A stretch of DNA of 64,000 bases from Kiritimatiellia bacterium (lineage in GTDB: Bacteria; Verrucomicrobiota; Kiritimatiellia; JAAZAB01): assembly GCA_041653875.1 (NCBI GenBank), contig JBAZEM010000006.1, positions 46,585 to 110,584 of the forward strand, written 5' to 3'. The notes beneath the pieces are model-generated. The model was given only the letters and a program-made list of their open reading frames with translations, was not told the origin of the DNA and ran no database searches. This document shows, in pieces, positions 44,903 through 64,000 of the stretch. How positions within the stretch are numbered: the first letter of the stretch is position 1; each line of letters begins with the position of its first letter. A program made the translations under genes and the position numbers.

Positions 44903-44919
44903 ATATAAAACGTTCTTGG

Positions 44920-45030
44920 TTCCTGGTTCTTAGTTCTTTGTTTAGCGGGCAAATTCTTTGGGTTGCGGGCATCGCCCGCCTTAGATTAACGAAGAACCAA
45001 GAACCAAGAACGAAGAACCAAGAACAGTTT
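44920..45030. repeat. Long hairpin with (GAACNAA)n arms flanking a GGGTTGCGGGC..GCCCGCCTTA core
   Basis: Arms gttcttggttcctggttcttagttctttg / cgaagaaccaagaaccaagaacgaagaaccaagaac. A similar structure lies at 21440-21590. The motif recurs at 22870-22920 and 26080-26110. Confidence 0.7.
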
Positions 45031-46525: not shown

Positions 46526-47289
46526 AAAAAAACCAGCTTAATGAAACCCTGCGTGCATGGGCGCGCCGGCGGGAATGCGGCGAGCAACGCTTGCAGGCAT
46601 TGACGGACGCCATCATGCAGTCGCTGCCCCGCCATCCATGCGTTTTTGAACCGGAGGATGCTCCGGCCATGCGGCGCCTTAACTTGTGGCCCAGCGTTAC
46701 ATATATCGCAATGGGAGCGGCGGCCATGCTGGCGATCGTTCTGGGGATCAACCTGGCGCGGCCTCATACGGCATTGCCGATTTCCTCGTCCCTTGGATTG
46801 CCCGCGAATTATGCCGTGTCCAAAGCCGTGGTTATAAGGGAAATGAGCCGCCTGTTTTCCGGGCAATTGCGCTGGGTGGCGGAAAACAACGGCGACATTA
46901 AAGTCGGCATAGATTCCGAGACGAGCGCGCGCGAAGGCGATTCGACATCCGCCTGGATCCAAACGGTGGTTGTCACCCGGCGGGCCGGCGAATCGACCTG
47001 GCGTCCGGTTTGGAGCACGGCGGTCCAAGTTCACAACGATGAACAGGTCGAATTGACCTTGCCCGCTGATTCCGAGGGGCGCTTAATGCTCTGGGCCTAT
47101 GCCGTGGACAAGGACAAGTGGGCCGTCGATTCCTTGTGCGCTTGGACCACCCCGGTGCGGCTGTCTTCCGAAAGCAGTGAAATCATCGAAACCGGCAAAT
47201 ACCAGGAGATCGCCGCGCTGAAGACCGATAACCGGGAATATCGAGTGTTTCAAACGGTGCTCAATATGAAACCTGACCGGAATTCGTGA
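46522..47289 (+). CDS. Putative anti-sigma factor (single-pass membrane protein)
   Basis: ATGA-coupled to the sigma gene. Central TM helix VTYIAMGAAAMLAIVLGI. Confidence 0.5.
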   Translation: MKKNQLNETLRAWARRRECGEQRLQALTDAIMQSLPRHPCVFEPEDAPAMRRLNLWPSVTYIAMGAAAMLAIVLGINLARPHTALPISSSLGLPANYAVSKAVVIREMSRLFSGQLRWVAENNGDIKVGIDSETSAREGDSTSAWIQTVVVTRRAGESTWRPVWSTAVQVHNDEQVELTLPADSEGRLMLWAYAVDKDKWAVDSLCAWTTPVRLSSESSEIIETGKYQEIAALKTDNREYRVFQTVLNMKPDRNS

Positions 47290-47290
47290 C

Positions 47291-48283
47291 ATGAGAACGA
47301 TCGGCCTTATGCTGGGATTCTTGCTGGTATGCACCGCGGCACAAGCCGCGCCCAAGCTTGCGATAGTCGTGCAAGAATCTTGGAACGATGTGTTTGGCGG
47401 CAAGGAGGCGGTTTTTCATGTCCTGGTCGGCGCCCGGGAAACCACTCGGGGACGTCTGGCATGGCGCTACGCGGCGGGGGATAAGACCATTGCCCGGCAG
47501 GAACGCGAGATCGATGTGGCGCCCGGCCGATCGCAGAACGTGGAAATCCGCCTGCCCGTGCCGGAGGTGAAAGCGGGGGTTATTCTAAACACAACGCTGT
47601 CAGTTGCGGTGAATGAAAATGGCGCCGCGCAGGCAACGGCAACCCTGGAAAAGACCCTCTGGGTTTTTCCGCCGGATCCGTTTGCCGGCCGCGCGGAATG
47701 GCTCAAGGAGCAAAACTTCTGGCTGTTCGATCCGGAGCGGAAAACGGCGGAGCGATTCGAAAAGTCCCATATCCCGTTTAAACGCATATCGGATGTAGGC
47801 GCTTTTCAGGATGTTCGAAATGGCGTCGTGGTCATAGGCGAGGGGGTCTCGTTCAAGGTCTATCGGGGGCTTTGGGATCAATTGATGGCGGTGGCATCGA
47901 GCGGTGTTCCCGTCCTGTGCCTTGCCCCCGCGGAGGGCAGTGTCCCACTGCTGGCGCCGGATGAATCGGCCTTTCCCGCGCCGGCAAGTCTGAAACTTGA
48001 AAAGGCCGCCATCATTCGAAAACTTGACAAGCGCTTGGATGCCGAGGCGTGGCCGCCGGACGGCCTGATCTGCTTGCGGACATTGACCGTTCGCGGCGAA
48101 CGAGGCGCTGTGATTGGCGAAATGGCGCCGCCCGCGGCGGGCGGCTGGCCTTGGATCGAAATGAGCGGCGGGTTGCCTCGCGGACGGTTGATTGTCTGTT
48201 GTTTTGCCGTTATCAAGAAGTGGGAGACCGGTCCCGCGCCGCGATTCCTGCTGGAGCGTGTTCTGCAATATATGTCCGAGTAA
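47291..48283 (+). CDS. Secreted hypothetical protein
   Basis: Signal peptide MRTIGLMLGFLLVCTAAQA. Abuts the anti-sigma gene. Confidence 0.5.
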   Translation: MRTIGLMLGFLLVCTAAQAAPKLAIVVQESWNDVFGGKEAVFHVLVGARETTRGRLAWRYAAGDKTIARQEREIDVAPGRSQNVEIRLPVPEVKAGVILNTTLSVAVNENGAAQATATLEKTLWVFPPDPFAGRAEWLKEQNFWLFDPERKTAERFEKSHIPFKRISDVGAFQDVRNGVVVIGEGVSFKVYRGLWDQLMAVASSGVPVLCLAPAEGSVPLLAPDESAFPAPASLKLEKAAIIRKLDKRLDAEAWPPDGLICLRTLTVRGERGAVIGEMAPPAAGGWPWIEMSGGLPRGRLIVCCFAVIKKWETGPAPRFLLERVLQYMSE

Positions 48284-49055: not shown

Positions 49056-50027
49056 ATGAAGACGATAACGAGCGTACTTATGAGCGGCATGATGTGGCTG
49101 GGCGCGGCCGGATTATCGATCGGCGCTGAAACCGGTGAGACGGTCAAGCCGGAAAAGACGCCGATAGTCTATCCGACGGCCATCTTTGCGTTCCAGGAGC
49201 GCGGTTCGGGCGTCAAGGACTATGGCGCCAAGGCGGCGGACATTCTCTTCGCGTCCCTGGCGGCGAATCCGGCCTTGTGCCTGGTGGACCGGGCGGACCT
49301 GCATAAATCGCTCCAGGAGCATGAACTGAACCTTTCCGGGATCGTGACTCCGGATCAGGCCGTGCAGATCGGCAAATTGACCGGTGCCCGGATCCTGGTG
49401 ACCGGCTCCGTGGTGGACGCGGATAAGACCATCTATGTGATCGCCAAGATCATCGGCACGGAGACCAGCCGCGTGTTGGGCGAGTCCGTGAAGGGCAAAT
49501 CGAGCGACGATCTCGCGCCCTTAATCGAGCAATTGGCGAAACAGGTGGCGGACACCATTGTCAAGAAAGCCGATCAATTGGTGGCCAAAGAAGTCAAGTT
49601 GGAAGACCGGATTGCCGCATTGAAAACCAAGTTGGGCGATGCCAAGCGACCGGTGGTTGCGATTAACGTCCAGGAGCGCCATGTCGGCCATATCACCATC
49701 GACCCGGCCGCCGAGACGGAATTGACGTTATTCTGCAAGGAAACGGGCTTTGAAGTTTTGGATAAGTCCGGGGACGCCAAAAAAGCCGACATCAGGCTGG
49801 AAGGCGAAGGGTTCAGCGAGTTTGCCATGCGCCACGGGAACTTGGTCAGCGTCAAGGCGCGCCTGGAGGTCAAGGCCATCGACCGCCAGACCGACAAAGT
49901 GATTGCCACGGACCGCCAGACCGCCGTGGTGGTGGACTTGACCGAAGAGATTGCCGGCAAATCCGCGCTCCAAAAAGCCGCGTCCGAGATCGCCGAACGT
50001 TTGTTGCCCAAGATCGTCAATAAGTGA
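49056..50027 (+). CDS. Secreted protein with CsgG/TolB-N-like alpha/beta domain and coiled coil
   Basis: Signal peptide. Motif ...LVDRADLHKSLQEHELNLSGIV...AVQIGKLTGARILVTGSV resembles the CsgG/LpoB/TolB-N fold signature. Paralogs at 56510 and 63691. Confidence 0.45.
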   Translation: MKTITSVLMSGMMWLGAAGLSIGAETGETVKPEKTPIVYPTAIFAFQERGSGVKDYGAKAADILFASLAANPALCLVDRADLHKSLQEHELNLSGIVTPDQAVQIGKLTGARILVTGSVVDADKTIYVIAKIIGTETSRVLGESVKGKSSDDLAPLIEQLAKQVADTIVKKADQLVAKEVKLEDRIAALKTKLGDAKRPVVAINVQERHVGHITIDPAAETELTLFCKETGFEVLDKSGDAKKADIRLEGEGFSEFAMRHGNLVSVKARLEVKAIDRQTDKVIATDRQTAVVVDLTEEIAGKSALQKAASEIAERLLPKIVNK

Positions 50028-50053
50028 GAAGACAGGGCTGACGGGAGGCATCT

Positions 50054-51946
50054 ATGGCCTATATCTATTTCAAATGCTCGTGCGGCAAATCGCTGGCCAT
50101 CGATGAGCGCGGTGTTGGCCGAATTATCGAGTGCGTCGATTGCGGCAAGCGGGTGACGGTCCCGGAATGGGAATATGCGTTTACCTGTTCGGAGTGCGAC
50201 GCAACGTTTGGCGCCGCTTCCGGCATCGCCGATGATTGCGCGCGGTGCGTTATTTGCGGGGACAAGTTTATCGTTCCCAGGAATAACGCTCCGTCGCAAA
50301 ACGATCTTGAAGGCGCTTCGATCGGCGAACAAACCGATCGTCCCGTAAACGAAGTCAAACTCCCGGCTTCGGGCGCTGCGCCGAATTCTCCGTTGCCGCC
50401 GGCGGCTTCATCCCGGAAATTGGTTTTCCCCGCGATCGACTGGGCGCGCCTTCAAGTCATGCTCTATCGCTTAACGTCCGTGGTTGTCGTGGTATTCATT
50501 GGGGTGACAGGGTTAAGCTGGTTTGTTTCCAAAGTCTTCCAATCGAACGAAGGACTATCCCGTGAAATCGAACGCAGTTCGAAACAAGGCGACGTGGCGG
50601 CGTCCGTTGCCGTTCTGGAGTCGGCCATCAAGCAATACCCGTTGGCGTTCGCCGGCGGGCGCCGCGCCAGGAAGTTGTTGGCGGATAACAAGACGATCGT
50701 TCAGGATACGACCAACTTGTCCGCCGCGCTCGTGCTGGCCAGGAAAGATACGAATGGCGAGTCCGCCGCCGAGCGCCTGGCCAAAGCCATAAAGAAATAT
50801 CGTCGGGCAGCCAACCGCGCCGAAGCCGAAACACTGGAAAAGAATATCCAGGCCCAGCTGAACGATTCGTGGGTGCTTTCCCTGGCGCTGAGAAACGGCC
50901 GGGCGACGGCCGATGTTCCCGCCCGGATCGAATTATTGAAAAAGGCCCTGACGGAGTGTCCTTGCGCCACCAACCGCGCCGACGCGGAAGCGATGATTGC
51001 CGCCGCCGGACAGCAATTACGGGAAACTGCCGGACTTGACCAGGCCATCCAACACGCCCGGAAGGAAGGCGATCCCTCTGAGAACGCCAAACTGCTTGCC
51101 GATGCGCTGGCCAAATATCCCCAAGCGACAAATCGGGAAGCCGCGTTGGGATTGTTGAAAAATTTACAGACGCAGGCAGGTGGGCAAGTCAAGGATCCCC
51201 TCTTGCAGGCGATTGTCAGCGCCAGGGCGCAAGACACCTTTGCCGCCGCCATCCGGGTGCTCACCGAGGCTTTGAAAATCAACAAAGATTCTCCCTATCG
51301 GGTCGAGGCGGAGCAGGTGTTGGCCGTTTATCAGAAACAATCGCTCGAAAGGACGACGGAACAAAAATCGGCCGTGACGGATTACATCGAAGAAGCCACG
51401 GATGCGTTGGCAAGCAGCGGATATGTCTTCCTGCCGCCGAACAAGGCCTTGGCCGGCGCCGGCGGAGTGTTGAGCTTATACGATAGTCCCTTGGCCAATA
51501 AAATTATCGCGATGAATTATGGCGTTGAGGTCAGACTTCGTAAAATCGCGGGCAAAAAAAATAAAGACGGCGCCGGCGGTCCGCCCCCGGCGGATTCCCT
51601 GCATTATGTTCCACGCCTGATTCTTTCGGCGAAAAACGGGGAAATTCCTCGGGGAAATATCGTTGTCATCGAGTATTACCTCGCCGATTATCAGGACAAG
51701 GCCGCCGGGCAAAGAGCGAAGGTCGAGCGCATCACGTTCCCGAAGATATCCAAAGGGCAGGCCCTGGCGGTGGATTGTCGGGGGATTGAGTGCAGTCCGC
51801 CGGTCAAAGGCGCCGCGTCAAAAAAAGAGGCCGGCAATAAATTGTACGGCATCATTGTCAGCGTGTACGGCAAAGGCAGTGAATTGCTCCTGCAGAAATG
51901 TTCAATGGCCAAACTGGTCAAGGAATGCAGTGTGCAGACCTATTGA
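50054..51946 (+). CDS. Zinc-ribbon (two CxxC pairs x2) transmembrane protein with about 45-aa helical repeats (KYPxATNR motif)
   Basis: N-terminus CSCG..CVDCG and CSEC..CVICG. One TM helix. Four repeats containing K(K)YxxA(T/A)NRxEA. Confidence 0.5.
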   Translation: MAYIYFKCSCGKSLAIDERGVGRIIECVDCGKRVTVPEWEYAFTCSECDATFGAASGIADDCARCVICGDKFIVPRNNAPSQNDLEGASIGEQTDRPVNEVKLPASGAAPNSPLPPAASSRKLVFPAIDWARLQVMLYRLTSVVVVVFIGVTGLSWFVSKVFQSNEGLSREIERSSKQGDVAASVAVLESAIKQYPLAFAGGRRARKLLADNKTIVQDTTNLSAALVLARKDTNGESAAERLAKAIKKYRRAANRAEAETLEKNIQAQLNDSWVLSLALRNGRATADVPARIELLKKALTECPCATNRADAEAMIAAAGQQLRETAGLDQAIQHARKEGDPSENAKLLADALAKYPQATNREAALGLLKNLQTQAGGQVKDPLLQAIVSARAQDTFAAAIRVLTEALKINKDSPYRVEAEQVLAVYQKQSLERTTEQKSAVTDYIEEATDALASSGYVFLPPNKALAGAGGVLSLYDSPLANKIIAMNYGVEVRLRKIAGKKNKDGAGGPPPADSLHYVPRLILSAKNGEIPRGNIVVIEYYLADYQDKAAGQRAKVERITFPKISKGQALAVDCRGIECSPPVKGAASKKEAGNKLYGIIVSVYGKGSELLLQKCSMAKLVKECSVQTY

Positions 51947-52014
51947 ACCGGCAAATGAATGGGCCATTCGTTTGTGAAATATGCGGACATTTTGGAATAT
52001 ACGAGGAGACAACG

Positions 52015-55000
52015 ATGAGTAGGCTGATCGTCAGGATGTTATACTCAACGGTTCATCGTTGGAACTGTGCCATGCGCGTCACCTTGCATTTTTCACTCGC
52101 ATTCACTTGGCGGCATTGCGTTGTCCTTGTCTGTATTATGGCCGTTGTGGCGGTTGTCGCCAAGGCCGATACGCACTATGTGTCCCTCGCGGGAACGTCA
52201 GCCTCCCCTTATACGAACTGGGCGGAGGCGGCTAATTCGATCCAGGCGGCCGTGAACGTTGCCGGCGACGGGGACGAAGTTGTGGTGGCTGACGGGGACT
52301 ACATCCTTTCCGAACAAATCGTCATCGCCAAGGGAATCACGGTCCGGAGCGATCTCGGGCGTTCGATGTGTCGGATTGACGGCGACAATGTGTGCCGATG
52401 TATTTGGCTTGCCCACAGTAACGCCGTAGTCAGCGGGTTTACCATTACGCGGGGCTTGGCCGGCCAAGGGGGCCAATCTGACGGCGGTGGGGGGATTTAT
52501 GTTGACCGGGCCGGCACGGTGCGCGACTGCAGCATTGCCGATAATATTTGCTCCAATATCTACGGCGTAATGTGTGGCGGAGGAATATATCTTTCGGGTG
52601 GAGGGACAATCCAAAATTGCCTTGTGTCAGGCAATATAGCCGACAGTAGCGTAGCATCCGAGGGCGGCGGCATTTACATGTCTGGCGGTCTTGTCGAAAA
52701 TTGCCTTGTTATCGGCAATATTAATCGGCCGACAGGTTCGGGATGGGGCGGCGGCATTTATCTTGAAACGGGCATCGCGAATCATTGCACGATCGTGAAT
52801 AACAGCGGCGTATATTCGGGTGGCGGCGTATATCTGAAGTCCGGCGTCGTCGTCAATTCCATCGTTCTTTACAACCAGGCGACAGGATATCAGGAGTGTC
52901 GTATAGTTGGCGGCGGGTCGGTTTCATTCACCTGTTGCACCTGGTATGATGGAATGTCATACGATGCCGGCAATGTGTATAATAAAGACCCGCTTTTTGT
53001 CGATTATACGAACGGCGACTTCCATCTGCAGGAGGGCTCCCCATGCATCGATGCTGGGGCGACAACGGATGTTGTGACGGTGGACTACGAGTATGCGACC
53101 CGTCCTTTGGACGGCAATGTGGACGGGAATTTTCGCGTGGATATGGGCGCATTCGAATACCGTGTGACAGACCTGCGTTGCAGTGTGGCGGTGAACACCA
53201 ACCAGGGCTTCGATCCATTGCCGGTGCGATGCGAGTGCTTTACGGGCGGGACAAATCTCGATGGCCTGTATTACCGGTGGGACTTCGATAACGACGGCCA
53301 TATCGATCTTGCCGGCCCGGATTTGGCGGTGGTGACGAATACCTACACCAATTGGGGCTGGAAGACGATCACGGTGATGGTGAGCAATGTGGCGGGAGAA
53401 GCAGCGTCAGCGGCATTGACGAATGCTGTCAAGGTCGGTCATCCGTTGGTCTATGTCTCCCCCTCCGGCTCGAGTGTGTTTCCTTATACGAACTGGACGA
53501 TGGCCGCAACGAACCTGAATTCGATTGACGATCTGTTGGTGGATGGAACTGAGGTTGTCGTAACGAACGGCCATTATGACCTTTCTCAGGAATTTTCCCT
53601 GAATTTTGCCGTCACTTTAAGGAGCGTGAACGGCTGGAGGCAAACGACCTTGGATGGCAACGATATAACCCGTTGCGTTCGGCTTGCGCACTCTGGCGCC
53701 GTGGTTGACGGATTTACGCTGACCCGCGGTTCCGCTTTAAGTGGCGGCGGCGCCTATCTCAACGGCGGTACGGTGCGGAACTGCTGGATTCACGGCAATC
53801 GCGCTCGCAACGGTGGAATTTCCGGCGGCGGCGGCGTCTGTATGTACGGCGGAAGATTGGCAAACTCTTTGATTACCGGCAACAGTGCGGCCTCAAGTCC
53901 GGTCAACGAAGCCAATACGCGCGGCGGCGGCGTTTGGCTGAATAATGGCGGCATTGTCGAGTTCTGCACTATTATGGCTAATTCCATTTCATCCGGGCGA
54001 GGAGGTGGCGGGTTGTACGGAGGCGGTTCAGCATCCTCCGGGGGCACCCTCTACAATTGCATAATCTGGGGAAACACGGCGCCGACCGGCGCGAACATCG
54101 GTCAATGGAATAACTGCATCGGCGCTTATTACACGTGTTCGACTCTGACAGGTTATATGGCGAGCATGGAGGGGAATATCACAAACAATCCGTGCCTGAG
54201 CGCCGACTGGCATCTTCTGGCCGGGTCGCCGTGCATCAATGCGGGAACGAACCTTTCCACTGCGCCTATGGACATGGAAGGGATATCGAGGGACCTGGCC
54301 GGAAATCCGGACATGGGTTCCTTTGAATACAACGGAACGACCTATCCGCCAATGATTACGGATCATCCTCTGTCGCAGGCCAAAAACCCGGGGTCAACGG
54401 CAACCTTCAGTGTGGCGGTGGTGGGGATCGCGCCGCTGTATTACCAATGGCAGAAAAACGGCGTGAACATTGCATCGGCGAACAGCACGAACTATATGAT
54501 CAATCCGGTAATGGACTGGAGTGCGGGGGGATACCGTTGTCTGGTAAGCAACGCGGCAGGTGTTGTGGAGAGCGCGGTGGCGGTGCTGAACGTGAACGCG
54601 CCGGTGGCGATCGCGACTCAGCCGCAATCGCGCGCGAACAATCCGGGTTCGTCGGCGAGCTTCACTGTGGCGGCGACGGGGACCGCGCCGCTGTGTTACC
54701 AGTGGCAGAAAAACGGCGCGAACATTGAATTGGCGAGCAATACGATCTACATGATCGATTCGGTGGCGGCTGGTGACGCGGGGGCGTACCTTTGCCTGGT
54801 AAGCAACGTAGTCGGGGTGGTGGCAAGCGCGGTGGCGGTGCTGAGCGTAAACGCGCCGGTGGCGATCGCGACTCAGCCGCAATCGCGCGCGAACAATCCG
54901 GGTTCGTCGGCAACCTTCACTGTGGCGGCGACGGGGACCGCGCCGCTGTATTACCAGTGGCAGAAAAACGGCACGAACATCGAATCGGCAAGCAATACGA

Positions 55001-56415
55001 TCTACACGATCGATCCGGTAACGCTCGGCGACGTGGGGACATACCGTTGCCTGATAAGCAACGTGGTCGGTGTTGTGGAGAGCGACGCGGCCCTGTTGGG
55101 CGTAAATAATCCGGTGGCAATCACAACTCAGCCGGAATCGCAAACGATCAATCCGGGCGCATCCGCGAGCTTTACGGTGGTGGCGACGGGGACCGCGCCG
55201 CTGTGTTACCAATGGCAGAAAAATGGAGTGAACATTGGTTCGGCTAACAGTGCGACCTATATGATTGCTTCGGTAACGGATGGTGACGCGGGGGAGTACC
55301 GTTGCATAGTGAGCAACATGGCCGGCTCGGCCACAAGCGCCGTGGCAGTTCTGACCGTGCAAAAGGCGCTGCCGCCTCTTGCCCCCACGGGCGTGTTCGC
55401 CAGTGACGGAGAATACACCGACAAGGTGCGCGTAACCTGGAATGCGGTAGGCGAGGCAACCGGCTACCAGGTCTGGCGGAGTGCAAGCAATAACATCGCG
55501 ATCGCCTCCAACCTGGCAACCACCGCAACGACAACCTACGACGATCTGAACGCCGCCACGATGCCCGGAACTGTTTTTTATTACTGGGTGAGGGCCGTAA
55601 ACGCCGCGGGCGCCGGCGGTTTCAGCACAAACGATCCCGGCTATGTGAGACCCGCCATCGGGCCGACCATCAAGGCCAATGGCACGGTGGGGGATGTCGC
55701 CGTCAATTATCCGGACGCTATGGAAATCACCATCGAAATTAACGAGATCAACAATGAGGGGGCGCCTGCTGATTGGTGGGTTCTTTCGCTGGCCGGATCG
55801 TCCTGGTACTACTTGAATAATGCAGTTGAGTGGACGCCGTTCGATGGCGACCTTTCTAATTGTCATCCGCTGTACCAGGGCGGTTTATTCAATCTGCCGT
55901 CCACGCTGTTGCCGGTGTTGAATATACCCGGCTTGCCGGTTAGTTCATATTCGTTCTGGTTCGCGGTCGATGCGCAGATGGATGGAATTCTGAACGTGGA
56001 TGGGCAGATCCTGGTTGATTCAGTGAATGTCACCATGCTTTCGACGTTGCCCGCGCCCCGTATTAAGGCCAATGGCGCAACTGGTATTGTCAACGTCAAT
56101 TATCCCGATACTGTGTCAATCGCCGTGGATCTGACTGCCAGGGCTTATGCCGGTGTACCTGTCGATTGGTGGGTGCTTCTTTGTGCCGGCTCGTCTTGGT
56201 TTTATATGGATGGCACGGTGGGCTGGACGCAGGCTGGTGTTTTGCGGCCGGTGTACCAGGGTGCTTTGGGCAATCTGCCGGCCGTTGAAGTGTTGAATGT
56301 TCCCGGTTTAGGAATTGGCTCATATACGTTCTATTTTGCTGTCGATCTGCCGATGAATGGGATTCTGGATTTGGAACAGGTTTGGGTAGATTCGGTGACG
56401 GTAAACGTTCGGTAA
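52015..56415 (+). CDS. Giant surface protein: two right-handed beta-helix (pectate-lyase-like) modules, PKD domain, 5 tandem Ig-like domains, FN3-like and C-terminal repeats
   Basis: GGAGAC RBS. NxxGGGIY beta-helix rungs. PKD motif YRWDFDNDGH. Five 83-aa Ig repeats encoded by 249-bp DNA repeats at about 54360-55360. Confidence 0.75.
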   Translation: MSRLIVRMLYSTVHRWNCAMRVTLHFSLAFTWRHCVVLVCIMAVVAVVAKADTHYVSLAGTSASPYTNWAEAANSIQAAVNVAGDGDEVVVADGDYILSEQIVIAKGITVRSDLGRSMCRIDGDNVCRCIWLAHSNAVVSGFTITRGLAGQGGQSDGGGGIYVDRAGTVRDCSIADNICSNIYGVMCGGGIYLSGGGTIQNCLVSGNIADSSVASEGGGIYMSGGLVENCLVIGNINRPTGSGWGGGIYLETGIANHCTIVNNSGVYSGGGVYLKSGVVVNSIVLYNQATGYQECRIVGGGSVSFTCCTWYDGMSYDAGNVYNKDPLFVDYTNGDFHLQEGSPCIDAGATTDVVTVDYEYATRPLDGNVDGNFRVDMGAFEYRVTDLRCSVAVNTNQGFDPLPVRCECFTGGTNLDGLYYRWDFDNDGHIDLAGPDLAVVTNTYTNWGWKTITVMVSNVAGEAASAALTNAVKVGHPLVYVSPSGSSVFPYTNWTMAATNLNSIDDLLVDGTEVVVTNGHYDLSQEFSLNFAVTLRSVNGWRQTTLDGNDITRCVRLAHSGAVVDGFTLTRGSALSGGGAYLNGGTVRNCWIHGNRARNGGISGGGGVCMYGGRLANSLITGNSAASSPVNEANTRGGGVWLNNGGIVEFCTIMANSISSGRGGGGLYGGGSASSGGTLYNCIIWGNTAPTGANIGQWNNCIGAYYTCSTLTGYMASMEGNITNNPCLSADWHLLAGSPCINAGTNLSTAPMDMEGISRDLAGNPDMGSFEYNGTTYPPMITDHPLSQAKNPGSTATFSVAVVGIAPLYYQWQKNGVNIASANSTNYMINPVMDWSAGGYRCLVSNAAGVVESAVAVLNVNAPVAIATQPQSRANNPGSSASFTVAATGTAPLCYQWQKNGANIELASNTIYMIDSVAAGDAGAYLCLVSNVVGVVASAVAVLSVNAPVAIATQPQSRANNPGSSATFTVAATGTAPLYYQWQKNGTNIESASNTIYTIDPVTLGDVGTYRCLISNVVGVVESDAALLGVNNPVAITTQPESQTINPGASASFTVVATGTAPLCYQWQKNGVNIGSANSATYMIASVTDGDAGEYRCIVSNMAGSATSAVAVLTVQKALPPLAPTGVFASDGEYTDKVRVTWNAVGEATGYQVWRSASNNIAIASNLATTATTTYDDLNAATMPGTVFYYWVRAVNAAGAGGFSTNDPGYVRPAIGPTIKANGTVGDVAVNYPDAMEITIEINEINNEGAPADWWVLSLAGSSWYYLNNAVEWTPFDGDLSNCHPLYQGGLFNLPSTLLPVLNIPGLPVSSYSFWFAVDAQMDGILNVDGQILVDSVNVTMLSTLPAPRIKANGATGIVNVNYPDTVSIAVDLTARAYAGVPVDWWVLLCAGSSWFYMDGTVGWTQAGVLRPVYQGALGNLPAVEVLNVPGLGIGSYTFYFAVDLPMNGILDLEQVWVDSVTVNVR

Positions 56416-56509
56416 TTTGGGATGGAATCCTGACAACAAATACAGCAGTTTCGGGGGCGGCAACGTTGACATGGTTGTCCCGGCTCTCTCGCTTGAGTAT
56501 GGATCAATC

Positions 56510-57517
56510 ATGAAGTCTCGAAACCAAAAGCTTTTCGCCCTGTTACTGATCCTTGCCGGAATTGGAATGGGGTATCTATGGCCGGCCGAAGCCGGCGCGG
56601 CGGGGACGGCGCAGATCAGTCTGAGCGGGGCGGTCTATCATGGCAATGAGCCGGATTTGGGGTTGACTGACTTTTGGTTGGCCACTTTGTCGAAACAGGC
56701 AACCATTAAAGTGCTTGAGCGCGCAGATATGCGCGCCATTCTGGGAGAGCTTTCCCTGGCGGGGGTGAGCGACGACTCAGCGCGCCAGGTCCGGTTGGGC
56801 CGATTGCTGGGGGTCGAATATTTTGCATGGATTAAAGCGTCGGACGAACAGGCCCTTTTGGAAGTTGTCGAGGCGGCGACCGGCCGGGGTGTCACGGTCG
56901 TTCCTGTGCGCTTCGCCAAGGGGCATTTCGCCGATATCCTGCCAAAATTAGCGGAGCAAGCGGCTCAGGCGGTTAGCAAGCCACCGCCAGCTCCATCGCA
57001 GGTCGCGCCATCGCTTGCGTTTTCGAACCCCCGCTTTTCCACTTCCAACGAGACTGTGCAAGCGGCGGTGGAAAAAGTCATGGCCGATTTATCGGGCGCC
57101 TGGGCCGGTTCCGGCATTACGATGCTGCCGCGCCGTTTTGCGGCGGATGCGGTACAGGAACGCTGGCGGCAGGAAAAGGGACTGGTGGAAGACACCTCGC
57201 AAGGCCAGGCATTCCTGGGCGCCGATTACATTCTGGGCGTTGCCGTTGACGCCACGAATCGGATCGAATTGATCATGGTCGAAACGGTAACTGGGCGCCG
57301 GCTCGGGAAAAAGGAAATGCCTCTTGAGGTGGCGCGGACGACTGAAGGATTGAAAACCATGAAGGAATGGGGGTTGGACCGATTGAAGCCGCTCATGAAG
57401 ACTCCTTCCATCCTTCCTCCTGCCGCAGTATGCATTAGCCGATCTGGGACCGGAAATCCTCGCTCCTTTAACAAACGGCGACGCGGAAGCCATGCGGCGA
57501 ATAGAGGATCGCGTTAG
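56510..57517 (+). CDS. Secreted CsgG/TolB-N-like domain protein (possibly N-terminal part of a frameshifted fusion with the Sel1 gene)
   Basis: Signal peptide. Motif LERADMRAILGELSLAGV...VRLGRLLGVEYFAWIKAS. The last about 35 aa in this frame look non-proteinaceous, while the +1 frame reads through cleanly into the next ORF. Confidence 0.45.
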   Translation: MKSRNQKLFALLLILAGIGMGYLWPAEAGAAGTAQISLSGAVYHGNEPDLGLTDFWLATLSKQATIKVLERADMRAILGELSLAGVSDDSARQVRLGRLLGVEYFAWIKASDEQALLEVVEAATGRGVTVVPVRFAKGHFADILPKLAEQAAQAVSKPPPAPSQVAPSLAFSNPRFSTSNETVQAAVEKVMADLSGAWAGSGITMLPRRFAADAVQERWRQEKGLVEDTSQGQAFLGADYILGVAVDATNRIELIMVETVTGRRLGKKEMPLEVARTTEGLKTMKEWGLDRLKPLMKTPSILPPAAVCISRSGTGNPRSFNKRRRGSHAANRGSR

Positions 57518-58382
57518 TCTGGCTGCTCAGGAATACAATCGCGTTGCCCTAACCATTGTTCGCGAAGCTAAAATAGCGCTGGGACAGGATATCGGCATTA
57601 TCAAATCCCCCCCGAGAGACCTTTACGAAGACACGGAGAAGGATTGGGTGATGGCTGTGGAAAAAAAGGCTGTGGACGGCGACCTATTCTTTATAGTGAT
57701 CGCGGGGGTGCTTTGTTACAATGGATACGCTAATGTCCCTGTTGATCGACAGAGGGGCATAGCATTGTGGCAAAAGGCCGCAAACTCAAACTGCGGGCTG
57801 GCCAAGTTGCGGATGGGGCAATGCTATGTAAATGGGGAGGTGCTCCCTCATGATTTAAAGAAGGCGGCGGTGTATTTTCGCGAAGCCGGCGAATTGGGAG
57901 TGCCAATTGGGTGGGATAACCTCGGATGTCTTTATAATGGCTGGCAGGGATGGTCTCCACGTGACCTTAATAAAGCCATGGATTACTGGGCAAAGTCCGC
58001 TCAAATGGGTTATGCCAAGTCGCAATTCAATCTCGGTTTTTATTACTGCAATGGAGATGAGGCTTTTCCTGTCAACAAGGAACTGGGGATTCAATGGATG
58101 CGGGCCGCGGCCTCCAATGGGCACACGCGCGCCATATCGTATCTTGCCGACTATGTCGATAAAAAACCTGCCCCAAGAACATTGCCGTCCGTCATTGAGG
58201 ATAAAAGCGCCGAGGTCGTTTCAACCTTCATTGAGTTCGATAAAATCAAGGAAAACGTTGCGGGAACGAAGGTTTCTGCGGTGTGTTTTGTGGATTCCTA
58301 CGATCCAGCTAAACCCGGCGGAAGTAGTACCCCGTCCCAAATGTCGCGGCCGGTCAAAAACGGACGATTTTCGCCGGTTTGA
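57492..58382 (+). CDS. Sel1-like repeat (SLR) protein
   Basis: Repeats of A..W..KAA.QG...AQ..LG..Y..G type (GIALWQKAANSNCGLAKLRMGQCYVNG; AMDYWAKSAQMGYAKSQFNLGFYYCNG). Confidence 0.6.
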   Translation: MRRIEDRVSLAAQEYNRVALTIVREAKIALGQDIGIIKSPPRDLYEDTEKDWVMAVEKKAVDGDLFFIVIAGVLCYNGYANVPVDRQRGIALWQKAANSNCGLAKLRMGQCYVNGEVLPHDLKKAAVYFREAGELGVPIGWDNLGCLYNGWQGWSPRDLNKAMDYWAKSAQMGYAKSQFNLGFYYCNGDEAFPVNKELGIQWMRAAASNGHTRAISYLADYVDKKPAPRTLPSVIEDKSAEVVSTFIEFDKIKENVAGTKVSAVCFVDSYDPAKPGGSSTPSQMSRPVKNGRFSPV

Positions 58383-58384
58383 AA

Positions 58385-58930
58385 ATGGATCAAAAATATG
58401 ATTATGTTGCCGTCAAAGGCGATAACATTTTCACAGGTAGGGCGAACCCTCCGGGTGAGCCGTTCTTCATCAAACGGCTCGGCAGGGACGCCTCGCCCTA
58501 CCATTTCGGCAATCCTATAAGAAAGCCATACCGAGCAAACCAGATAAGAATATCTTTTAAAAAAGGTTCCGAACTATATCCATTTTCAAACCGGCCATTT
58601 CAGGTAGAATTAGAACGGCGTTTGCACCAAATGCTGGACATTTACCTGGCCAGGCTCAGGACGCTCAAGCGCCGGCCGACGGAGACTGCCGGCGTCAATA
58701 CGGTGAACCCCGCAGACGTGAAAATATTCATCGTTGAGGGCCGGGAGGACACGCGCGCCAAAGTGCGGGAATTCGACAACCAATATCAACTGAAAACATA
58801 CGACGGCTCTATCCCGGTCATATATGTTTTTAATTCGGGACGATGGGTTAAAACCTACACCTACAGCCGCGATCCCGGCCCGAATGGCCTGGAGTTGAAG
58901 GCGCTGGTGGAAAGCTTGCTGGCAAAATGA
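58385..58930 (+). CDS. Hypothetical protein
   Basis: ATG at 58385 immediately after the upstream stop. No recognisable motif. Confidence 0.4.
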   Translation: MDQKYDYVAVKGDNIFTGRANPPGEPFFIKRLGRDASPYHFGNPIRKPYRANQIRISFKKGSELYPFSNRPFQVELERRLHQMLDIYLARLRTLKRRPTETAGVNTVNPADVKIFIVEGREDTRAKVREFDNQYQLKTYDGSIPVIYVFNSGRWVKTYTYSRDPGPNGLELKALVESLLAK

Positions 58931-59115
58931 AGCAATGGCTTGTTTATATTGGCATCTTGCTGGTGACAGCGGCGGTCACATATGCCGGTGACGATTCGGC
59001 TATCCGGATTGCCGTACTGGCCGAGGATGTGTCGCCGGAAAGTCGCGCCTTGACCGACCTGCTAACGGCCGACCTCTTCCAAGTCAAATACGTTTTGAAA
59101 ACATTCGGAGATTAA
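58927..59115 (+). CDS. Small secreted hypothetical protein
   Basis: ATGA-coupled. Signal-peptide-like N-terminus. Confidence 0.3.
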   Translation: MKQWLVYIGILLVTAAVTYAGDDSAIRIAVLAEDVSPESRALTDLLTADLFQVKYVLKTFGD

Positions 59116-59119
59116 ATTC

Positions 59120-62100
59120 GTGAAGTTACAAAATCCATCTCTTTTTGGACTGCTTTCGATCCTTTTGGGACTGGGCATGGCCGCAGGGTGTTTCCCTCCA
59201 AGGAACGCAAATTCCAAGACCACCGAACAACCGGACGTGCCGCGCCCCTTGGTGATTGTCGAGCGCGGCGAGATGGATCCTTCCGGAAGTGAAGGGATTT
59301 TGCTCCGTGAATTGGGACGCCAGGCGGTGATGATCGCCGCCCGCGAGGGGTTGGGCGCCCGCACGTGGGACATGACGCTCATGGATACGGCGCCAAGTCC
59401 GGCGGCCACCAACGCGTTAACGGTTCGGCTGTGGATGTCGGCCACAACCAACGGTTTCAAAATCGGCCTAAAGTCGGTCGGCGCCAATGGCGCGACCGCT
59501 CAGTTGCTGGAGCGAACGATCGAGACTCCGGCGCGGCAGTTCCTGGACTATGAAACGCTCATTGCCAACCTTGAAGCCATGTCGCGCTCCACGTTTGTCG
59601 ATGCATTGAAATCGGCGGGCATTGCGCCGGTCGTGATCCCACAGTCAACAGGTCATGTGCGGACGGCATCATCCGGAAATGACGCTTTATGGGGCAGTAT
59701 GGACGTCTTTACTCACTGGGCGGCTCTGCGTGCGCTTCATAATGAGATTCGCATTCAGGGGGAATCGTCCGCCAATCTGGCGGAACTGGCGCGGGGTTAC
59801 GCCAATATGGCGCAGATGACCCGTTTTTGCTGGAACTCGATGGATAAGGCGTGCATGGCGCGAGCCTTGCTCTATGCCCAGCGCCTGATGGCTACCCGGC
59901 CGGAAATGTCCATGGCCAGGGCTTATCGCGCTTATGTTCGGGCATTGTGTGAAAGGCATGGGCCGGCCTTGGAAGATATCGACGCTGTGCGCAAAGCCTG
60001 TGGCGGCCGGACGAATGACCTTCCGGCATGGTTGGACATCCTGGCGTCCTATTGCCGATATCGAACGGCAGTCCTCAATGACCGGGCCGAGAAGGAGCCG
60101 AATAATCAACTCTTGTCGTTACTCCGGGTCATGGCTGTTCGCAACGCGAGGAGCGAGACAGTCCGGTTAAACATAATCCAGGATGCCCTGAAGAAGGCGC
60201 CGTTGTGTTCTGTCCTGTATGACGACTGGTGCGCCGTGCCGGGGGTATCGGTGGGGCACCAGGCGACAACCATGTCGCCCGTCGCATTTGCTTCGACCCT
60301 GTGCCAAATAATTAGCAGAATGAAAATCCTGCCGAATGAGATACGCGAGCTGGCGCTGCAGGGCGAAAAACAGCGACATGATCGGCGAGGCTCTGCGGGG
60401 TCGGACGTGGACGCTAAACTGCCTGGTTTTCAGGACGCGGCGATCCGAACCAACCTGGTCCATAACTTGTATGCCATCGGCGAGAAAGACTCGCGGGAAC
60501 CCTCCGTAGCCATGTTAGGAGCGCTGATCGAGAGTGCCTCGTTCGTTCAAATCCAACGCCGTTTTTATTTTATGGCTGATGTGTGGGGTCTTCCTTCGGA
60601 AGAAATAAAGACGCTTATGCCCGCCGTCAAGCCTTACATTGCCTCCCATCCCTATCGGGCGTTCATCGAAAGCTATGCGTTAAATCCGCAACGCGACAAG
60701 TCGGTCTATACCCAATCGATGGCTGGGTTGGTCGTGATGGATATGAAGCCCGCCATGGCGCCCATCGTCAAAGTCCGCCCCCCTCTCGACATCAACGCTC
60801 AGTCCGATCAAATCGCCGGCGACCTGGAATCCCGGATTTTAAAACAAGCGTCCCGGAAGGAACCGGACAATGCCAGGGAGTTGCAGCGGGATGTCGCCGA
60901 ACTGGAATTGATCAGTCCGTTTTCTCCGGTGGCCGTGACCGCCCGCATCAAGATCGATTGGGACCAGTCGGCGAATCGCGTGGCGGCGTGGGAAGCGTGC
61001 GCTTCGGAACAGCCGGATATTGCCCGCGCCCTGGCTTTGAAGTACCGCGAACTTGAGCGCTATCGAGAGGCGGAACGTTTTTTGCATTTCTGGGCAGATC
61101 AGACGCGGGACTACTCAGCCTATTATGCGTTGGCGAATAACTTTTCGCGGCAAGGACAGACTAACGAGTGGTTGGCCACGATGGAAGACGCTCTGAAAAA
61201 TGTCCGGGATACCGGTCTCGATCATGCCGATATTCGGATAAAAATCGCCCTTTATTATATGCGGCTCGGGCAATGGTTAAAAGCCGTTCCTTATGCCGAA
61301 ACAGCCGCCAAAACATGGGCCGCTCGGGCCATGACCTGCGCCGCGCAATGTTATGAAGGCGCGGGCCAATGGGCGCAGGCCGAGCAGTGGGTCCGCCGAA
61401 ATGCGGAGCGCTATGACGGGGAGCGCCTGAAATGGTATTGCTGGTGCCGGCGCACGGGGCAGGGGAACGCGTCCGCCGCGCTGGCCTTTGCGAACAAGTA
61501 TGCGGCAACATTCGAGGCCAGCGAACAGACCAAGGATCGATATTGGGCGGCGGCTTTCTATCAATTAAGCGGCGACACAAACAAAGCGCTTGAAATATGG
61601 TCGAAAGCTTACACGCAACATCGCCATCCTTATCCCGGTCTCCACGCCGTATTGTTGCTGTCCCAACTGAATCGGTCCCATGAACGGGATGCTTTGCTTA
61701 AAAAAATAGTGAAGCGCGCCGATTCGCGCACAAGTCAGCGAAGCGATTTGCCCGCCCTGAATGCAATGGCCGTGTTGTTCCAGCAATATTTGGGCGGGGC
61801 CGACCGTCTGGATTTCGATGAAAAGGCGGCGGATATCGTCGCTTATAGCGACGATGCCGATGAGCGCGAATATTTGTGCTATTTTGCCGGATATTTCTAC
61901 GAATTAATGGGCGAGCCGGAATTGTCGGTTGCATACTACGAACGCGCCGACGATCTTTTTTTGCCGTATATGCAGCCGGTCTATCTGGCCGGCGCCGCCC
62001 GGCAACGACTTAAGGCCGGCGGCAAAATGGCGGGACGGCCGGGCGCGAACCTAAATCGCCCAGGCAAATACGACAGCGCCATAGAGTTTGCCCGGAAGAA

Positions 62101-62635
62101 GATATCCATGATGGAATCCGAGTTCGGCACGAACCATCTCGATGTGGGGGATGCGGTGTATGAACTGGGCAATCTCTATTACAAGCAAGGCCAATACGCG
62201 GCGGCCGGGCCGCTCTACCAACGTGCGCTGACGATCTGGGAGAAGGCGCTCGGCGCCGGCAATCGCGATTTGGCCGTTCCATTAAGGGCTTTGGGATTGG
62301 TCTATTATAAACAAGGCCGGTATGCTGTGGCTGAACCGTTCTTCCAACGTGCCTTGGCGATCCGGGAGAAAGCCTTGGATCCCAACCACGTCGATGCGGC
62401 CGAGTCGTTGCGTGACCTTGCCCGTCTATATTACAGGCAAAAGCGATACGCGGCGGCCGAGCCGCTCTACCGCCGCGCCTTGGCGATTTTGGAAAAAGCC
62501 CGCGGCCCTGACCATCCCGATGTGGCAAGGGTTATGGAAGACATGGCGCATCTCTATGGCAAGACCGGCGACAAAACGAAGGAACTCGAGTACAAAGAAC
62601 GTGCCGCCAAAATCCGTGAAAAATCGCGTAAATGA
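59120..62635 (+). CDS. Large lipoprotein with C-terminal TPR (TPR_10/12, kinesin-light-chain-like) repeats
   Basis: GTG start. Lipobox LGLGMAAGC. C-terminal repeats LGNLYYKQGQYAAAGPLYQRALTIWEKALG x4. Confidence 0.65.
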   Translation: MKLQNPSLFGLLSILLGLGMAAGCFPPRNANSKTTEQPDVPRPLVIVERGEMDPSGSEGILLRELGRQAVMIAAREGLGARTWDMTLMDTAPSPAATNALTVRLWMSATTNGFKIGLKSVGANGATAQLLERTIETPARQFLDYETLIANLEAMSRSTFVDALKSAGIAPVVIPQSTGHVRTASSGNDALWGSMDVFTHWAALRALHNEIRIQGESSANLAELARGYANMAQMTRFCWNSMDKACMARALLYAQRLMATRPEMSMARAYRAYVRALCERHGPALEDIDAVRKACGGRTNDLPAWLDILASYCRYRTAVLNDRAEKEPNNQLLSLLRVMAVRNARSETVRLNIIQDALKKAPLCSVLYDDWCAVPGVSVGHQATTMSPVAFASTLCQIISRMKILPNEIRELALQGEKQRHDRRGSAGSDVDAKLPGFQDAAIRTNLVHNLYAIGEKDSREPSVAMLGALIESASFVQIQRRFYFMADVWGLPSEEIKTLMPAVKPYIASHPYRAFIESYALNPQRDKSVYTQSMAGLVVMDMKPAMAPIVKVRPPLDINAQSDQIAGDLESRILKQASRKEPDNARELQRDVAELELISPFSPVAVTARIKIDWDQSANRVAAWEACASEQPDIARALALKYRELERYREAERFLHFWADQTRDYSAYYALANNFSRQGQTNEWLATMEDALKNVRDTGLDHADIRIKIALYYMRLGQWLKAVPYAETAAKTWAARAMTCAAQCYEGAGQWAQAEQWVRRNAERYDGERLKWYCWCRRTGQGNASAALAFANKYAATFEASEQTKDRYWAAAFYQLSGDTNKALEIWSKAYTQHRHPYPGLHAVLLLSQLNRSHERDALLKKIVKRADSRTSQRSDLPALNAMAVLFQQYLGGADRLDFDEKAADIVAYSDDADEREYLCYFAGYFYELMGEPELSVAYYERADDLFLPYMQPVYLAGAARQRLKAGGKMAGRPGANLNRPGKYDSAIEFARKKISMMESEFGTNHLDVGDAVYELGNLYYKQGQYAAAGPLYQRALTIWEKALGAGNRDLAVPLRALGLVYYKQGRYAVAEPFFQRALAIREKALDPNHVDAAESLRDLARLYYRQKRYAAAEPLYRRALAILEKARGPDHPDVARVMEDMAHLYGKTGDKTKELEYKERAAKIREKSRK

Positions 62636-62639
62636 TACG

Positions 62640-62700
62640 CCTTATCTTTAAGGCGGGCTAAGCGCCCGCAACCCAAGGGAGGGCGGGCATGTTGCCCGCT
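62640..62700. terminator. Inverted copy of the terminator-associated repeat found after rhaA
   Basis: Reverse complement of 36946-37000 with 2-3 mismatches. Directly follows the stop of the TPR gene. Confidence 0.55.
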
Positions 62701-62744
62701 ACGGACAGCGACACGCTGTCCCTCCCAAAAACATACACGCAAAA

Positions 62745-63360
62745 ACGTGTATCTTTACGGAAAAGGTGCTAAGGGAACAACTCGGGTAGTCAGGAGTCGG
62801 AATAACTTGATCTACAGGAATTTTCCGCCATTGGCGTATCCCTGGCCGAGCTCGGGCAGGACGCCTCCGGCGGACAAAGTTGTAGCCGCGAGACGACCCG
62901 CCTGCAACGCTTCGCGTAGCGATGCGGGCAGGTAGGCTCGCGCAATTAGCCGAAAACGCCAGGCTTCGCCGGAGCGCTTCGCCCAGGCGAGTCGGCCTAA
63001 ACGTCCGACGGCCTGCCCGCAATGCTACGCATAGCGTTGCAGGCGGGCTACAGTTACAGTAACAGTCGCGGCCTTCGGCCGCCTACCTTGATGTTAAGGA
63101 AATTCAACCCAGGTAGAGCCGGTTTTTCCTCCATAGGCGGATCCGCCTCCGGCGGAACACCGGCTATAATAGCCGACATAAAGTCGGCTCTACATGGAAC
63201 AGTTGCGGCCTTTGGCCGCCTAACTCGATGCATAGGAAATCCAAACCCGCCGGGTCAGGGGACCCGGCCTACAATACTGTAGGCCCGGTGCCCTCACCGG
63301 GCGTTATGAAAAGCCGCCCCGCTGCGGGGCCTAACTCGATCTAATAGGAAATTGTATTTT
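62745..63360. repeat. BIME-like mosaic repeat array (largest copy; at least 4 linker motifs)
   Basis: Linkers at about 62800, 63095, 63215 and 63330 with 115-120 bp spacing. Modules shared with 14866-15245 and 48335-48545. Confidence 0.8.
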
Positions 63361-63690
63361 TTGAGAATTTGCGTCTGGACTAAGAAAAATGATTTATTGG
63401 TAGGGCTCGGTTGCCTGCCCGCCATAGCCCCGGGCGACGGCGGGTCCCTGCCGAGCCGTTTGTGGAAGAACGGCCCACCCGGCCGTCGTCGCGCCGAAGT
63501 GACGCTATGCCGGGCCGCGAAGGCGGAAGGGTGGTCCCTACCTTGCGGAAGTCCGCGGAGCGCGGTTTTACGCGCTCTGCGATAAGTGCACCATTTTGAT
63601 GAGTGAAAGCTCTGTAAATACGGGGCGCGGCGATATGGTATATGAAATTATTCATTTACGAGCCCTAAGCATAAATATGTCCGGACAATT

Positions 63691-64000
63691 ATGATCTCTT
63701 TAGTACACCGCCGTCGATCATTTCTGCCTCGGCCTTGGCGCTGGGCCGTTCCGGCGTTTTTCTTGCCGCTGGCCCTGATGCTGACCTGCATTCCGGCCGG
63801 CGGGGTTGAAACAACGGTGGCCGTCCTTAATTTCGCCAATACGCATGCCGGCGCTGAAAAAGACCAACAGCGCTGGTTATCCAAAGGGCTGGCCGACCTG
63901 TTAATCGGCGACCTCTCGCTTTCCAAGCAACTCCGCGTCGTCACGCGGGAGGACATGCAGGTGCTTATGCAGGAAGCCGAACTCATCGACAAAGCGATCG
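63691..64000 (+). CDS. Partial (5' end) secreted CsgG/TolB-N-like domain protein, third paralog
   Basis: Manual translation: signal peptide then VAVLNFANTHAG...LSKGLADLLIGDLSLSKQLRVVTREDMQVLMQEAELID. It runs off the window end. Confidence 0.45.
   Translation, partial: MISLVHRRRSFLPRPWRWAVPAFFLPLALMLTCIPAGGVETTVAVLNFANTHAGAEKDQQRWLSKGLADLLIGDLSLSKQLRVVTREDMQVLMQEAELIDKAI

Follow-up and report, generated by a model that had tools for sequence, protein, structure and literature searches.

Three open reading frames (ORFs) in a 64-kb stretch of DNA from a Kiritimatiellia bacterium (assembly GCA_041653875.1, contig JBAZEM010000006.1; the whole stretch of 64,000 nucleotides is here called the window) encode exported, non-lipidated, non-pore members of the CsgG/PelC/LpoB/TolB-N/LptE superfamily, and all three belong to a single ancient gene cluster specific to the Planctomycetota-Verrucomicrobiota-Chlamydiota (PVC) bacteria. 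Base composition is even across the window, with a GC content of about 55-60%; the homologue families of ORF1 and ORF3 are annotated as Kiritimatiellia, and window positions 58700-63822 are identical to a contig of another assembly, GCA_041649685.1. The three genes, together with the protein names used below, are as follows.

49056..50027, + strand: ORF1 (protein A), 323 amino acids (aa); signal peptide, alpha/beta domain at about residues 39-170, helical linker and second alpha/beta domain at about 200-322.
56510..57517, + strand: ORF2 (protein D'), 335 aa; truncated 5' remnant of a CsgG-like/TPR gene of about 1070 aa.
63691..64000, + strand: ORF3 (protein B), first 103 of 965 codons; signal peptide and start of a CsgG-like domain.

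Remote homology of three exported proteins

A sequence-only reading of this DNA had proposed that these ORFs encode three secreted paralogues sharing a CsgG/LpoB/TolB-N-like alpha/beta domain. The three ORFs are present on the + strand as described, and a plausible signal peptide of Sec type I stands at each N-terminus, assigned by eye from the basic N-region, hydrophobic core and small-residue cleavage site (N-termini MKTITSVLMSGMMWLGAAGLSIGA/ETG in ORF1, MKSRNQKLFALLLILAGIGMGYLWPAEAGAAG in ORF2 and MISLVHRRRSFLPRPWRWAVPAFFLPLALMLTCIPAGG in ORF3). The first of the two sequence motifs on which the proposal was built, a beta strand followed by ...D.L...L......L.V(V/L)(E/D)R..(L/M)..(L)..E.(E)L, is found in all three. 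The second, LG..LGA..LV.GSV, held up less evenly, being clear only in ORF1 (IGKLTGARILVTGSV) and loose in ORF2 (RLGRLLGVEYFAWIKAS); in ORF3 this region lies beyond the end of the window and reads LKVDQLIFGSYTV in the full-length gene, which was obtained from metagenome contig L008 (L-numbers denote the related loci and contigs used for comparison).

Against the Pfam CsgG model (PF03783, gathering score 20.8 bits), ORF1 scores 33.5 bits and ORF3 scores 28.8 bits for the part within the window and 30.5 bits at full length, both above the cutoff. ORF2 falls below it at 16.4 bits (E=0.0056), but two more distant members of its family, P0159 and P0163, exceed it at the same position as ORF2, with 23.3 and 23.5 bits, and all three ORFs match the model over one and the same N-terminal stretch. 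Pairwise BLASTP relates ORF1 to ORF2 (29% identity over 106 aa, E=6e-6) and to ORF3 (E=0.002); ORF2 and ORF3 gave no match to each other. Comparison of family alignments by hhalign (54 homologues of ORF1, 24 of ORF3 and six ORF2-like N-termini) links all three pairs, with probabilities of 95.2% for ORF1-ORF3 (E=2.6e-8, 131 columns), 88.8% for ORF2-ORF1 (E=2.5e-6) and 73.7% for ORF2-ORF3 (E=2.9e-5, 130 columns). When only the domain is aligned the corresponding values are 96.8%, 80.9% and 87.6%, and negative controls against the neighboring protein X reach 1.7% and 0.4%. Thus the profile searches, run as a refutation test of the proposal, do not split the three ORFs into unrelated families, all of them matching Pfam CsgG, and the pattern common to them is real but remote homology. 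A hidden Markov model of the ORF1 domain detected no additional copy elsewhere in the window.

Fold of the shared domain and absence of channel features

A search of PDB sequences with the ORF1 family profile returned nothing meaningful and did not retrieve CsgG, so that comparison of folds was needed. In the AlphaFold2 model of ORF1 (pLDDT 76.4), an alpha/beta domain at residues 39-170, with the element order beta-alpha-beta-alpha-alpha-beta-beta-beta-alpha, is followed by a helical linker (172-193) and a second alpha/beta domain (200-322). The model of ORF3 (pLDDT 80.6, pTM 0.78) has the same order of elements at residues 39-179. Foldseek matches the ORF1 model best to LpoB (E=1.2e-6, target-normalized TM-score 0.72) and then to the CsgG pre-pore, TolB, LptE, PelC and CT253 of Chlamydia, so that by structure comparison ORF1 has the core fold of the CsgG/PelC/LptE/LpoB/TolB-N alpha/beta superfamily. 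Because of these matches and of the element order repeated in the ORF3 model, the fold assignment originally made is correct, and it is further backed by the Pfam CsgG and hhalign results. The C-terminal partner envisaged for ORF1, a coiled coil, describes only part of what is there: the model shows the helical linker and, beyond it, the second alpha/beta domain, which carries a weak LptE-like signal.

Membership of this superfamily leaves the type of protein to be considered. The CsgG channel is built from two transmembrane beta-hairpins per full-length domain, which together form a 36-stranded barrel. The matches of the window ORFs cover only positions of about 10-102 of the 210 in the CsgG model, and in the ORF1 model the strands at 113-122, 125-134 and 140-147 are joined by turns of 2-5 residues, with a helix following directly; these short turns leave no room for two transmembrane hairpins. 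Lipobox-like motifs occur in only 1 of 54 members of the ORF1 family, 3 of 24 of the ORF3 family and none of six in the ORF2 family, the cleavage sites being of the AxA type, and the LMLTC of ORF3 has no counterpart in the relative that is 84% identical to it. When the genes of the cluster were scanned with Pfam, for the window as well as for L005, L007 and L012, nothing like csgA, csgB, csgE or csgF, or like hfaA or hfaD, was detected. On these four grounds (half of the model matched, hairpins missing, lipobox not conserved, and neither curli nor holdfast genes in the clusters scanned) a CsgG-type channel was rejected.

Orthology to two other well characterized members of the fold was rejected as well. 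For LpoB, ORF1 scores 15.2 bits against TIGR02722 (E=0.016), far below the cutoff of 110.55, and lacks a lipobox. For TolB, no TolB_N or PD40 match was found in Pfam (at E<=1 for ORF1, ORF2 and the window part of ORF3, and at E<=0.01 for full-length ORF3), the propeller of ORF3 resembles those of GH93 enzymes and sialidases, and no tol or pal genes are adjacent.

An ancient cluster behind a sigma factor

The genes that precede ORF1 in the window, and the promoter-like site in front of them, are the following.

45920..45949, + strand: ECF-type (extracytoplasmic function) promoter-like motif CAAAGTTTT-N12-CGTCTAAT, just 5' of the sigma factor gene; single strict site in the window.
45968..46525, + strand: ECF sigma factor, 185 aa; mechanical ORF from 45860, likely start ATG 45968.
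46522..47289, + strand: putative single-pass anti-sigma factor, 255 aa; start overlaps the sigma stop by 4 nt.
47291..48283, + strand: protein X, secreted, 330 aa; constant neighbor of ORF1.

Every gene from 45860 to the end of the window lies on the + strand. Upstream, at 41406-45635, housekeeping genes on the minus strand form the boundary of the cluster: a hisF-like gene and those for an M16 peptidase, an imidazoleglycerol-phosphate dehydratase and a protein of the AsmA/DUF748 kind.

The conservation of this arrangement is best appreciated through protein A. Its family comprises 2519 matches, the best 120 of which share 63-84% identity with ORF1, and is annotated in public databases as "CsgG/HfaB family protein" or "TolB-like protein". 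Synteny was assessed in the best 80 of 192 ORF1 relatives found by an ORF1-alignment search of species-representative genomes, with the denominators given below counting the informative loci. These 80 orthologues are 53-84% identical and are spread over Kiritimatiellia, Lentisphaerae/Victivallales, Verrucomicrobiota and Planctomycetota; among the source genomes is the complete one of Singulisphaera sp. Ch08. Protein X, for which no significant Pfam or PDB sequence match was found, lies directly upstream of A in 67 of 69 loci and directly downstream in the remaining two, both from Singulisphaera. An ECF sigma gene is found no more than 4.5 kb upstream of A in 41 of 55 loci, and a large ORF with a CsgG-like domain lies just downstream of A in at least 37 of 57. 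Across phyla the components have diverged to very different extents, with identities of 53-84% for A, about 40-51% for sigma, 30-58% for X and 23-38% for the anti-sigma.

The usual order is ECF sigma, anti-sigma, X and A, followed by one to several large proteins with an A-like N-terminal domain (B, C and D) and often by a Sel1-repeat protein. L012 reads sigma, anti-sigma, X, A, B, C, D, Sel1, D, D, its stop and start codons overlapping or close; its close relative L013 has X-A-B-C, L005 has X-A-D-Sel1, and L007, a metagenome-assembled genome from Lentisphaerae, has sigma, anti-sigma, X, A and a 923-aa protein with a CsgG domain. Throughout, a constant N-terminal domain is combined with variable C-terminal regions, which are TPR repeats or a BNR propeller in the window proteins and, in relatives, FGE-sulfatase-like, WD40 or HEAT domains. 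Because the arrangement is conserved across related loci, the three ORFs are ancient paralogues inside a conserved cluster; the recent local expansion suggested by the sequence-only reading is not borne out, each paralogue having an orthologue family of its own and the arrangement being kept across the PVC phyla.

The sigma factor is readily recognized (Pfam Sigma70_r2 58.9 and Sigma70_r4_2 35.4 bits; NCBIfam sigma70-ECF 82.2 bits, cutoff 42.9). The protein encoded after it has no Pfam or NCBIfam match; its position directly behind sigma is kept in related loci, one hydrophobic segment is visible, and position and topology together suggest that it acts as the anti-sigma factor. The regions upstream of the sigma genes have in common, across phyla, a two-block motif, CAAAGATTT-N12-CGTCTAAT. 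A stringent scan of 2.1 Mb of related loci found 26 sites, 22 of them at the 5' end of a sigma gene, versus 2 in shuffled sequence. In the window the site at 45920-45949 places the start of sigma at ATG 45968, giving 185 aa as in its relatives (182-185 aa), rather than at 45860. No such motif was found upstream of ORF1, ORF2 or ORF3 in the window. As judged from the motif, the simplest reading is that the cluster is an autoregulated ECF operon that would carry X, A and the genes downstream.

ORF3 and a fourth CsgG-like protein

The window ends within ORF3, and a search of species-representative genomes for an exact match to the window end found none; contig L008 matches it exactly and supplies the full 965 aa. 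In this protein the alpha/beta domain is followed by TPR-like helices, beta-sandwiches and a six-bladed, sialidase-like BNR propeller that is closest to GH93 enzymes and sialidases and in which only degenerate Asp-boxes are visible in the sequence. Directly after ORF3, beyond the window, L008 encodes a fourth CsgG-like protein (gene C, L008 3482-4303; 273 aa with TPR repeats; Pfam CsgG 26.7 bits), which is kept in L012, L013, L019 and L057.

Another contig, L001, was set aside as a source for the remainder of ORF3 because it diverges from the window after 63010, inside a cluster of repeats. Beyond that point L001 (4522-14147, European Nucleotide Archive ERZ27247358) carries genes resembling those of type II secretion pseudopilins and a further ECF sigma gene, with no ORF3. 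Either strains differ here by a rearrangement, or the contig is a chimera joined at the repeats.

Rearrangement of the cluster in this window

In the window the conserved order is rearranged, and the region after ORF1 contains the following elements.

50054..56415, + strand: lineage-specific insert with genes for a 630-aa zinc-ribbon membrane protein (50054-51946) and a beta-helix/Ig protein of about 1467 aa (52012-56415).
57414..58930, + strand: damaged Sel1-repeat gene E'; 5' end and signal peptide lost; Pfam Sel1 75.7 bits.
59120..62635, + strand: TPR protein, 1171 aa; Pfam TPR_12 187 bits; lipobox-like LGMAAGC read from the sequence.
62648..63312, no strand assigned: cluster of short REP/MITE-like (repetitive extragenic palindrome/miniature inverted-repeat transposable element) repeats of families D5, D6, I1 and I2, between the TPR gene and ORF3.

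The two genes of the insert seem to have entered the conserved cluster in this lineage only. Neither separates A from the partner genes downstream of it in L005, L012 or L013, and the 630-aa double zinc-ribbon protein has no tblastn counterpart in the 80 related loci; Pfam and NCBIfam matches within the insert are to Ig_3/I-set and choice-of-anchor Q. The larger, secreted protein contains two choice-of-anchor Q beta-helix modules (NCBIfam 74.5 bits), an FN3 domain and four tandem I-set Ig domains, the last encoded with a DNA period of 255 nt at 54354-55418. The cluster is thus arranged differently here: A is split from the remnant of D by the insert, and B and C follow an unrelated, putative TPR lipoprotein and the repeats. 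The 1171-aa TPR protein is not orthologous to the D, F or G proteins of L012 except for its TPR_12 units; no other protein of the cluster is a candidate lipoprotein, and the gene for the TPR protein contains 126-nt tandem repeats at 62132-62526.

ORF2 starts at ATG 56510 rather than at an upstream TTG, because its homologues begin at the same MKSR. Its family includes at least 56 representative clusters, and its closest relative, P0122 (79% identity), extends past the sequence LPPAAV into TPR-like and further domains, as do the ORF2-like proteins of 1070-1075 aa in L005 and L012. In an exhaustive search the ORF2-like module was N-terminal, and 20 of the 29 representatives with E<=1e-10 were 1061-1577 aa long. 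Similarity of the window to the long D gene ends at 57430. From 57414 onward, in a frame other than that of ORF2, tblastn matches residues 13-331 of the 429-aa Sel1 protein of L005 (57414-58343), and residues 325-416 of the same protein match 58613-58888 in a different frame. This switch of similarity at 57430/57414 points to a deletion of about 2.3 kb, in which about 770 codons of the long gene and the signal peptide of the Sel1 protein were lost. Beyond residue 307 or so, ORF2 has an arginine-rich tail that is an out-of-frame read of the Sel1 gene, which is itself interrupted by an insertion of about 270 nt (58344-58612) bearing a REP-like element of repeat family D9 (58428-58467). Hence ORF2 is not, as had been supposed, fused to Sel1 repeats, the Sel1 protein of relatives being a separate gene product with its own signal peptide.

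The truncated ORF2 and broken Sel1 gene also occur in an independent assembly (L011). The ratio of nonsynonymous to synonymous substitution rates in the surviving part of ORF2 is 0.22, versus 0.23 for an intact pair, with no sign of relaxed selection; the truncation is therefore recent or tolerated, and the remaining N-terminal part does not qualify as a decaying pseudogene on this evidence. Contigs of other assemblies of the same organism end or diverge at 63010-63822, in the area of the repeat cluster.

Repeats and other elements also occur elsewhere in the window. Direct and inverted intergenic repeats of the REP/MITE type lie at 14873-15220, 32310-32463, 36933-36995, 44141-44180, 48493-48542, 58428-58467, 62648-62710 and 63044-63312. 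A tandem array of about 20 copies of a 7-nt unit (GACGGAC/GACGACG) occupies 30853-31019, a less pronounced stretch of this kind lies some 8 kb upstream at 22746-22872, and at least five 129-nt tandem repeats of 82-91% identity (2541-3356) lie inside a 595-aa minus-strand ORF (2534-4321). Two cobalamin riboswitches (Rfam RF00174) on the minus strand, at 19982-20149 (69.2 bits) and 6898-7083 (67.3 bits), stand 5' of minus-strand genes.

What the cluster may do

The favored reading, to which roughly even chances can be given, is that the shared domain serves for docking or oligomerization and that A, a hub working together with X, gathers the adaptors in an envelope complex under sigma control. 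A signal arising at the envelope would release sigma from its membrane-bound anti-sigma; the freed sigma would then transcribe its own operon from the CAAAGATTT-N12-CGTCTAAT promoter, and the products would be exported by Sec. With the alpha/beta domain as the common docking or oligomerization module, A and X could assemble paralogous adaptors whose variable C-terminal modules (TPR, Sel1 or a sialidase-like BNR propeller, and FGE-sulfatase-like, WD40 or HEAT domains in relatives) may equip a periplasmic complex close to the outer membrane. The conservation of A, far higher than that of the other components, fits a hub with many interfaces. Among ring-forming members of the fold, CsgG assembles as a 9-mer, PelC as a 12-mer and PqiC-like proteins as 8-mers. 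By analogy, the complex might resemble the rings of CsgG, PelC, PqiC-like lipoproteins and TraT and that of the flagellar ring protein of the LPHT-ring (8z5n).

Several observations weigh against this reading. PqiC-, LptE-, PelC- and CsgG-like proteins are outer-membrane lipoproteins with one common alpha/beta core, according to a 2026 paper (PMC13631591), and the known ring-forming relatives are all outer-membrane lipoproteins; as the window proteins, unlike these relatives, have no lipid anchor, localization at the outer membrane is unsupported. In sequence, no relation of the second domains of ORF1 and ORF2 to the first domains, or between the two second domains, could be detected. The strong conservation of A could equally be explained by binding of a conserved envelope molecule. 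Since 14 of 55 loci carry X-A without a nearby sigma gene, sigma control is not universal, and in loci lacking sigma no motif was found upstream of X save for one possible site in L035. The searchable literature yielded no description of, or experimental data on, a module of sigma, anti-sigma, X and A.

Among other explanations, the one that survives best, albeit as an unlikely one, is that A, together with X, is an RseB-like periplasmic co-regulator of the anti-sigma, making the cluster an envelope-stress sensor of PVC bacteria rather than a structural assembly. A would be bound to the anti-sigma through the latter's periplasmic domain and would let go on capturing an envelope ligand, for example a mislocalized glycolipid or lipopolysaccharide. 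Against it, the LptE-like signal in ORF1 stays under every threshold, X-A is found with no linked sigma/anti-sigma pair in a quarter of the loci, the anti-sigma is poorly conserved in its periplasmic part (23-38%) and thus ill-suited to a highly conserved partner, and the repeated occurrence of A-like domains on large downstream proteins would be left unexplained.

The structural matches raise a further explanation, namely that these proteins are PVC analogues of Lpo, Tol-Pal or CpoB proteins, periplasmic adaptors for peptidoglycan synthases or for outer-membrane tethering in growth and division. LpoB and the N-domain of TolB are among the best structural matches, ORF3 joins a TolB-N-like domain to a six-bladed propeller, and the TPR regions of ORF3 and protein C have YbgF/CpoB as their best NCBIfam match, at 31.9 and 28.4 bits against a cutoff of 90.1. 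Yet every sequence match of this kind is far under the family cutoffs, the propeller is BNR/sialidase-like and not of the PD40 type found in TolB, the cluster contains no tol, pal or penicillin-binding protein (PBP) genes, and neither an LpoB-like lipid anchor nor a long linker is present, so that this explanation is improbable. A similarly slim chance attaches to a periplasmic apparatus for handling or exporting glycans, comparable to PelBC or AlgK/E, in which the alpha/beta domains would form a funnel, the TPR and Sel1 proteins would be scaffolds and the ORF3 propeller would trim the polysaccharide; the conserved cluster has no glycosyltransferase, polymerase, outer-membrane beta-barrel or inner-membrane exporter, and the Asp-boxes of that propeller are degenerate. 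Finally, true outer-membrane secretion channels of the CsgG/HfaB type, exporting an amyloid or holdfast-anchor substrate as suggested by the database name, are very improbable and largely refuted by the match to only the N-terminal half of the model, the lack of sequence for the two hairpins and of a conserved lipobox, the absence of CsgA/B/E/F- or Hfa-like genes from the Pfam scans of the cluster and the failure of the PDB sequence search to retrieve CsgG.

Returning to assembly around A, a broader proposal can be offered only tentatively, and is itself rather unlikely as a whole: X-A and the adaptors B, C and D may form an undescribed, ECF-controlled periplasmic machine of PVC bacteria, either a soluble ring or scaffold of the CsgG fold or a sensor of envelope integrity. 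If true, such a machine would take over tasks performed by lipoproteins in Proteobacteria (functions of the Lpo, Tol, Pel and Lpt types) and would explain why A retains about 60% identity from Kiritimatiellia to Planctomycetota.

Although the fold assignment is already known from public annotation, the genomic context is new. Protein A, soluble and non-pore, is among the most conserved exported proteins common to Kiritimatiellia, Lentisphaerae, Verrucomicrobiota and Planctomycetota, and X accompanies it in every case; an ECF sigma/anti-sigma pair that has a recognizable promoter-like motif usually precedes the two. As PVC envelopes are poorly understood, a conserved, regulated multi-protein module and its motif offer a handle for genetics in tractable planctomycetes and a testable lead on PVC envelope biology. 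The same context cautions that annotation as "CsgG family" is not evidence of curli-type secretion.

Comparison with known systems

Relative to CsgG (PF03783/COG1462) and HfaB, the window proteins are without the hairpins, the lipobox and the curli or holdfast partners, and they possess instead an additional second alpha/beta domain, TPR repeats or a BNR propeller. LpoB, the activator of PBP1B, is alike in fold but has a lipid anchor and a long flexible or disordered linker, both of which are missing here. In TolB the TolB_N domain is followed directly by a six-bladed propeller of the PD40 type, whereas ORF3 has TPR and beta-sandwich domains between its N-domain and a propeller of the BNR/sialidase type; for LpoB and TolB alike, the window genes lie outside a tol-pal or PBP context. 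PelC, PqiC-like proteins and LptE, which form rings or plugs and share the alpha/beta core, are lipoproteins that work with a beta-barrel or an MCE tube (PMC13631591), and neither such a partner nor a lipobox is found in the cluster. The closest likeness in gene organization is to rpoE-rseA-rseB-like operons: although neither of its accessory proteins, X and A, is related to RseB, the cluster shares with these operons overlapping sigma and anti-sigma genes, exported proteins encoded after them and a conserved two-block ECF-type promoter-like motif upstream.

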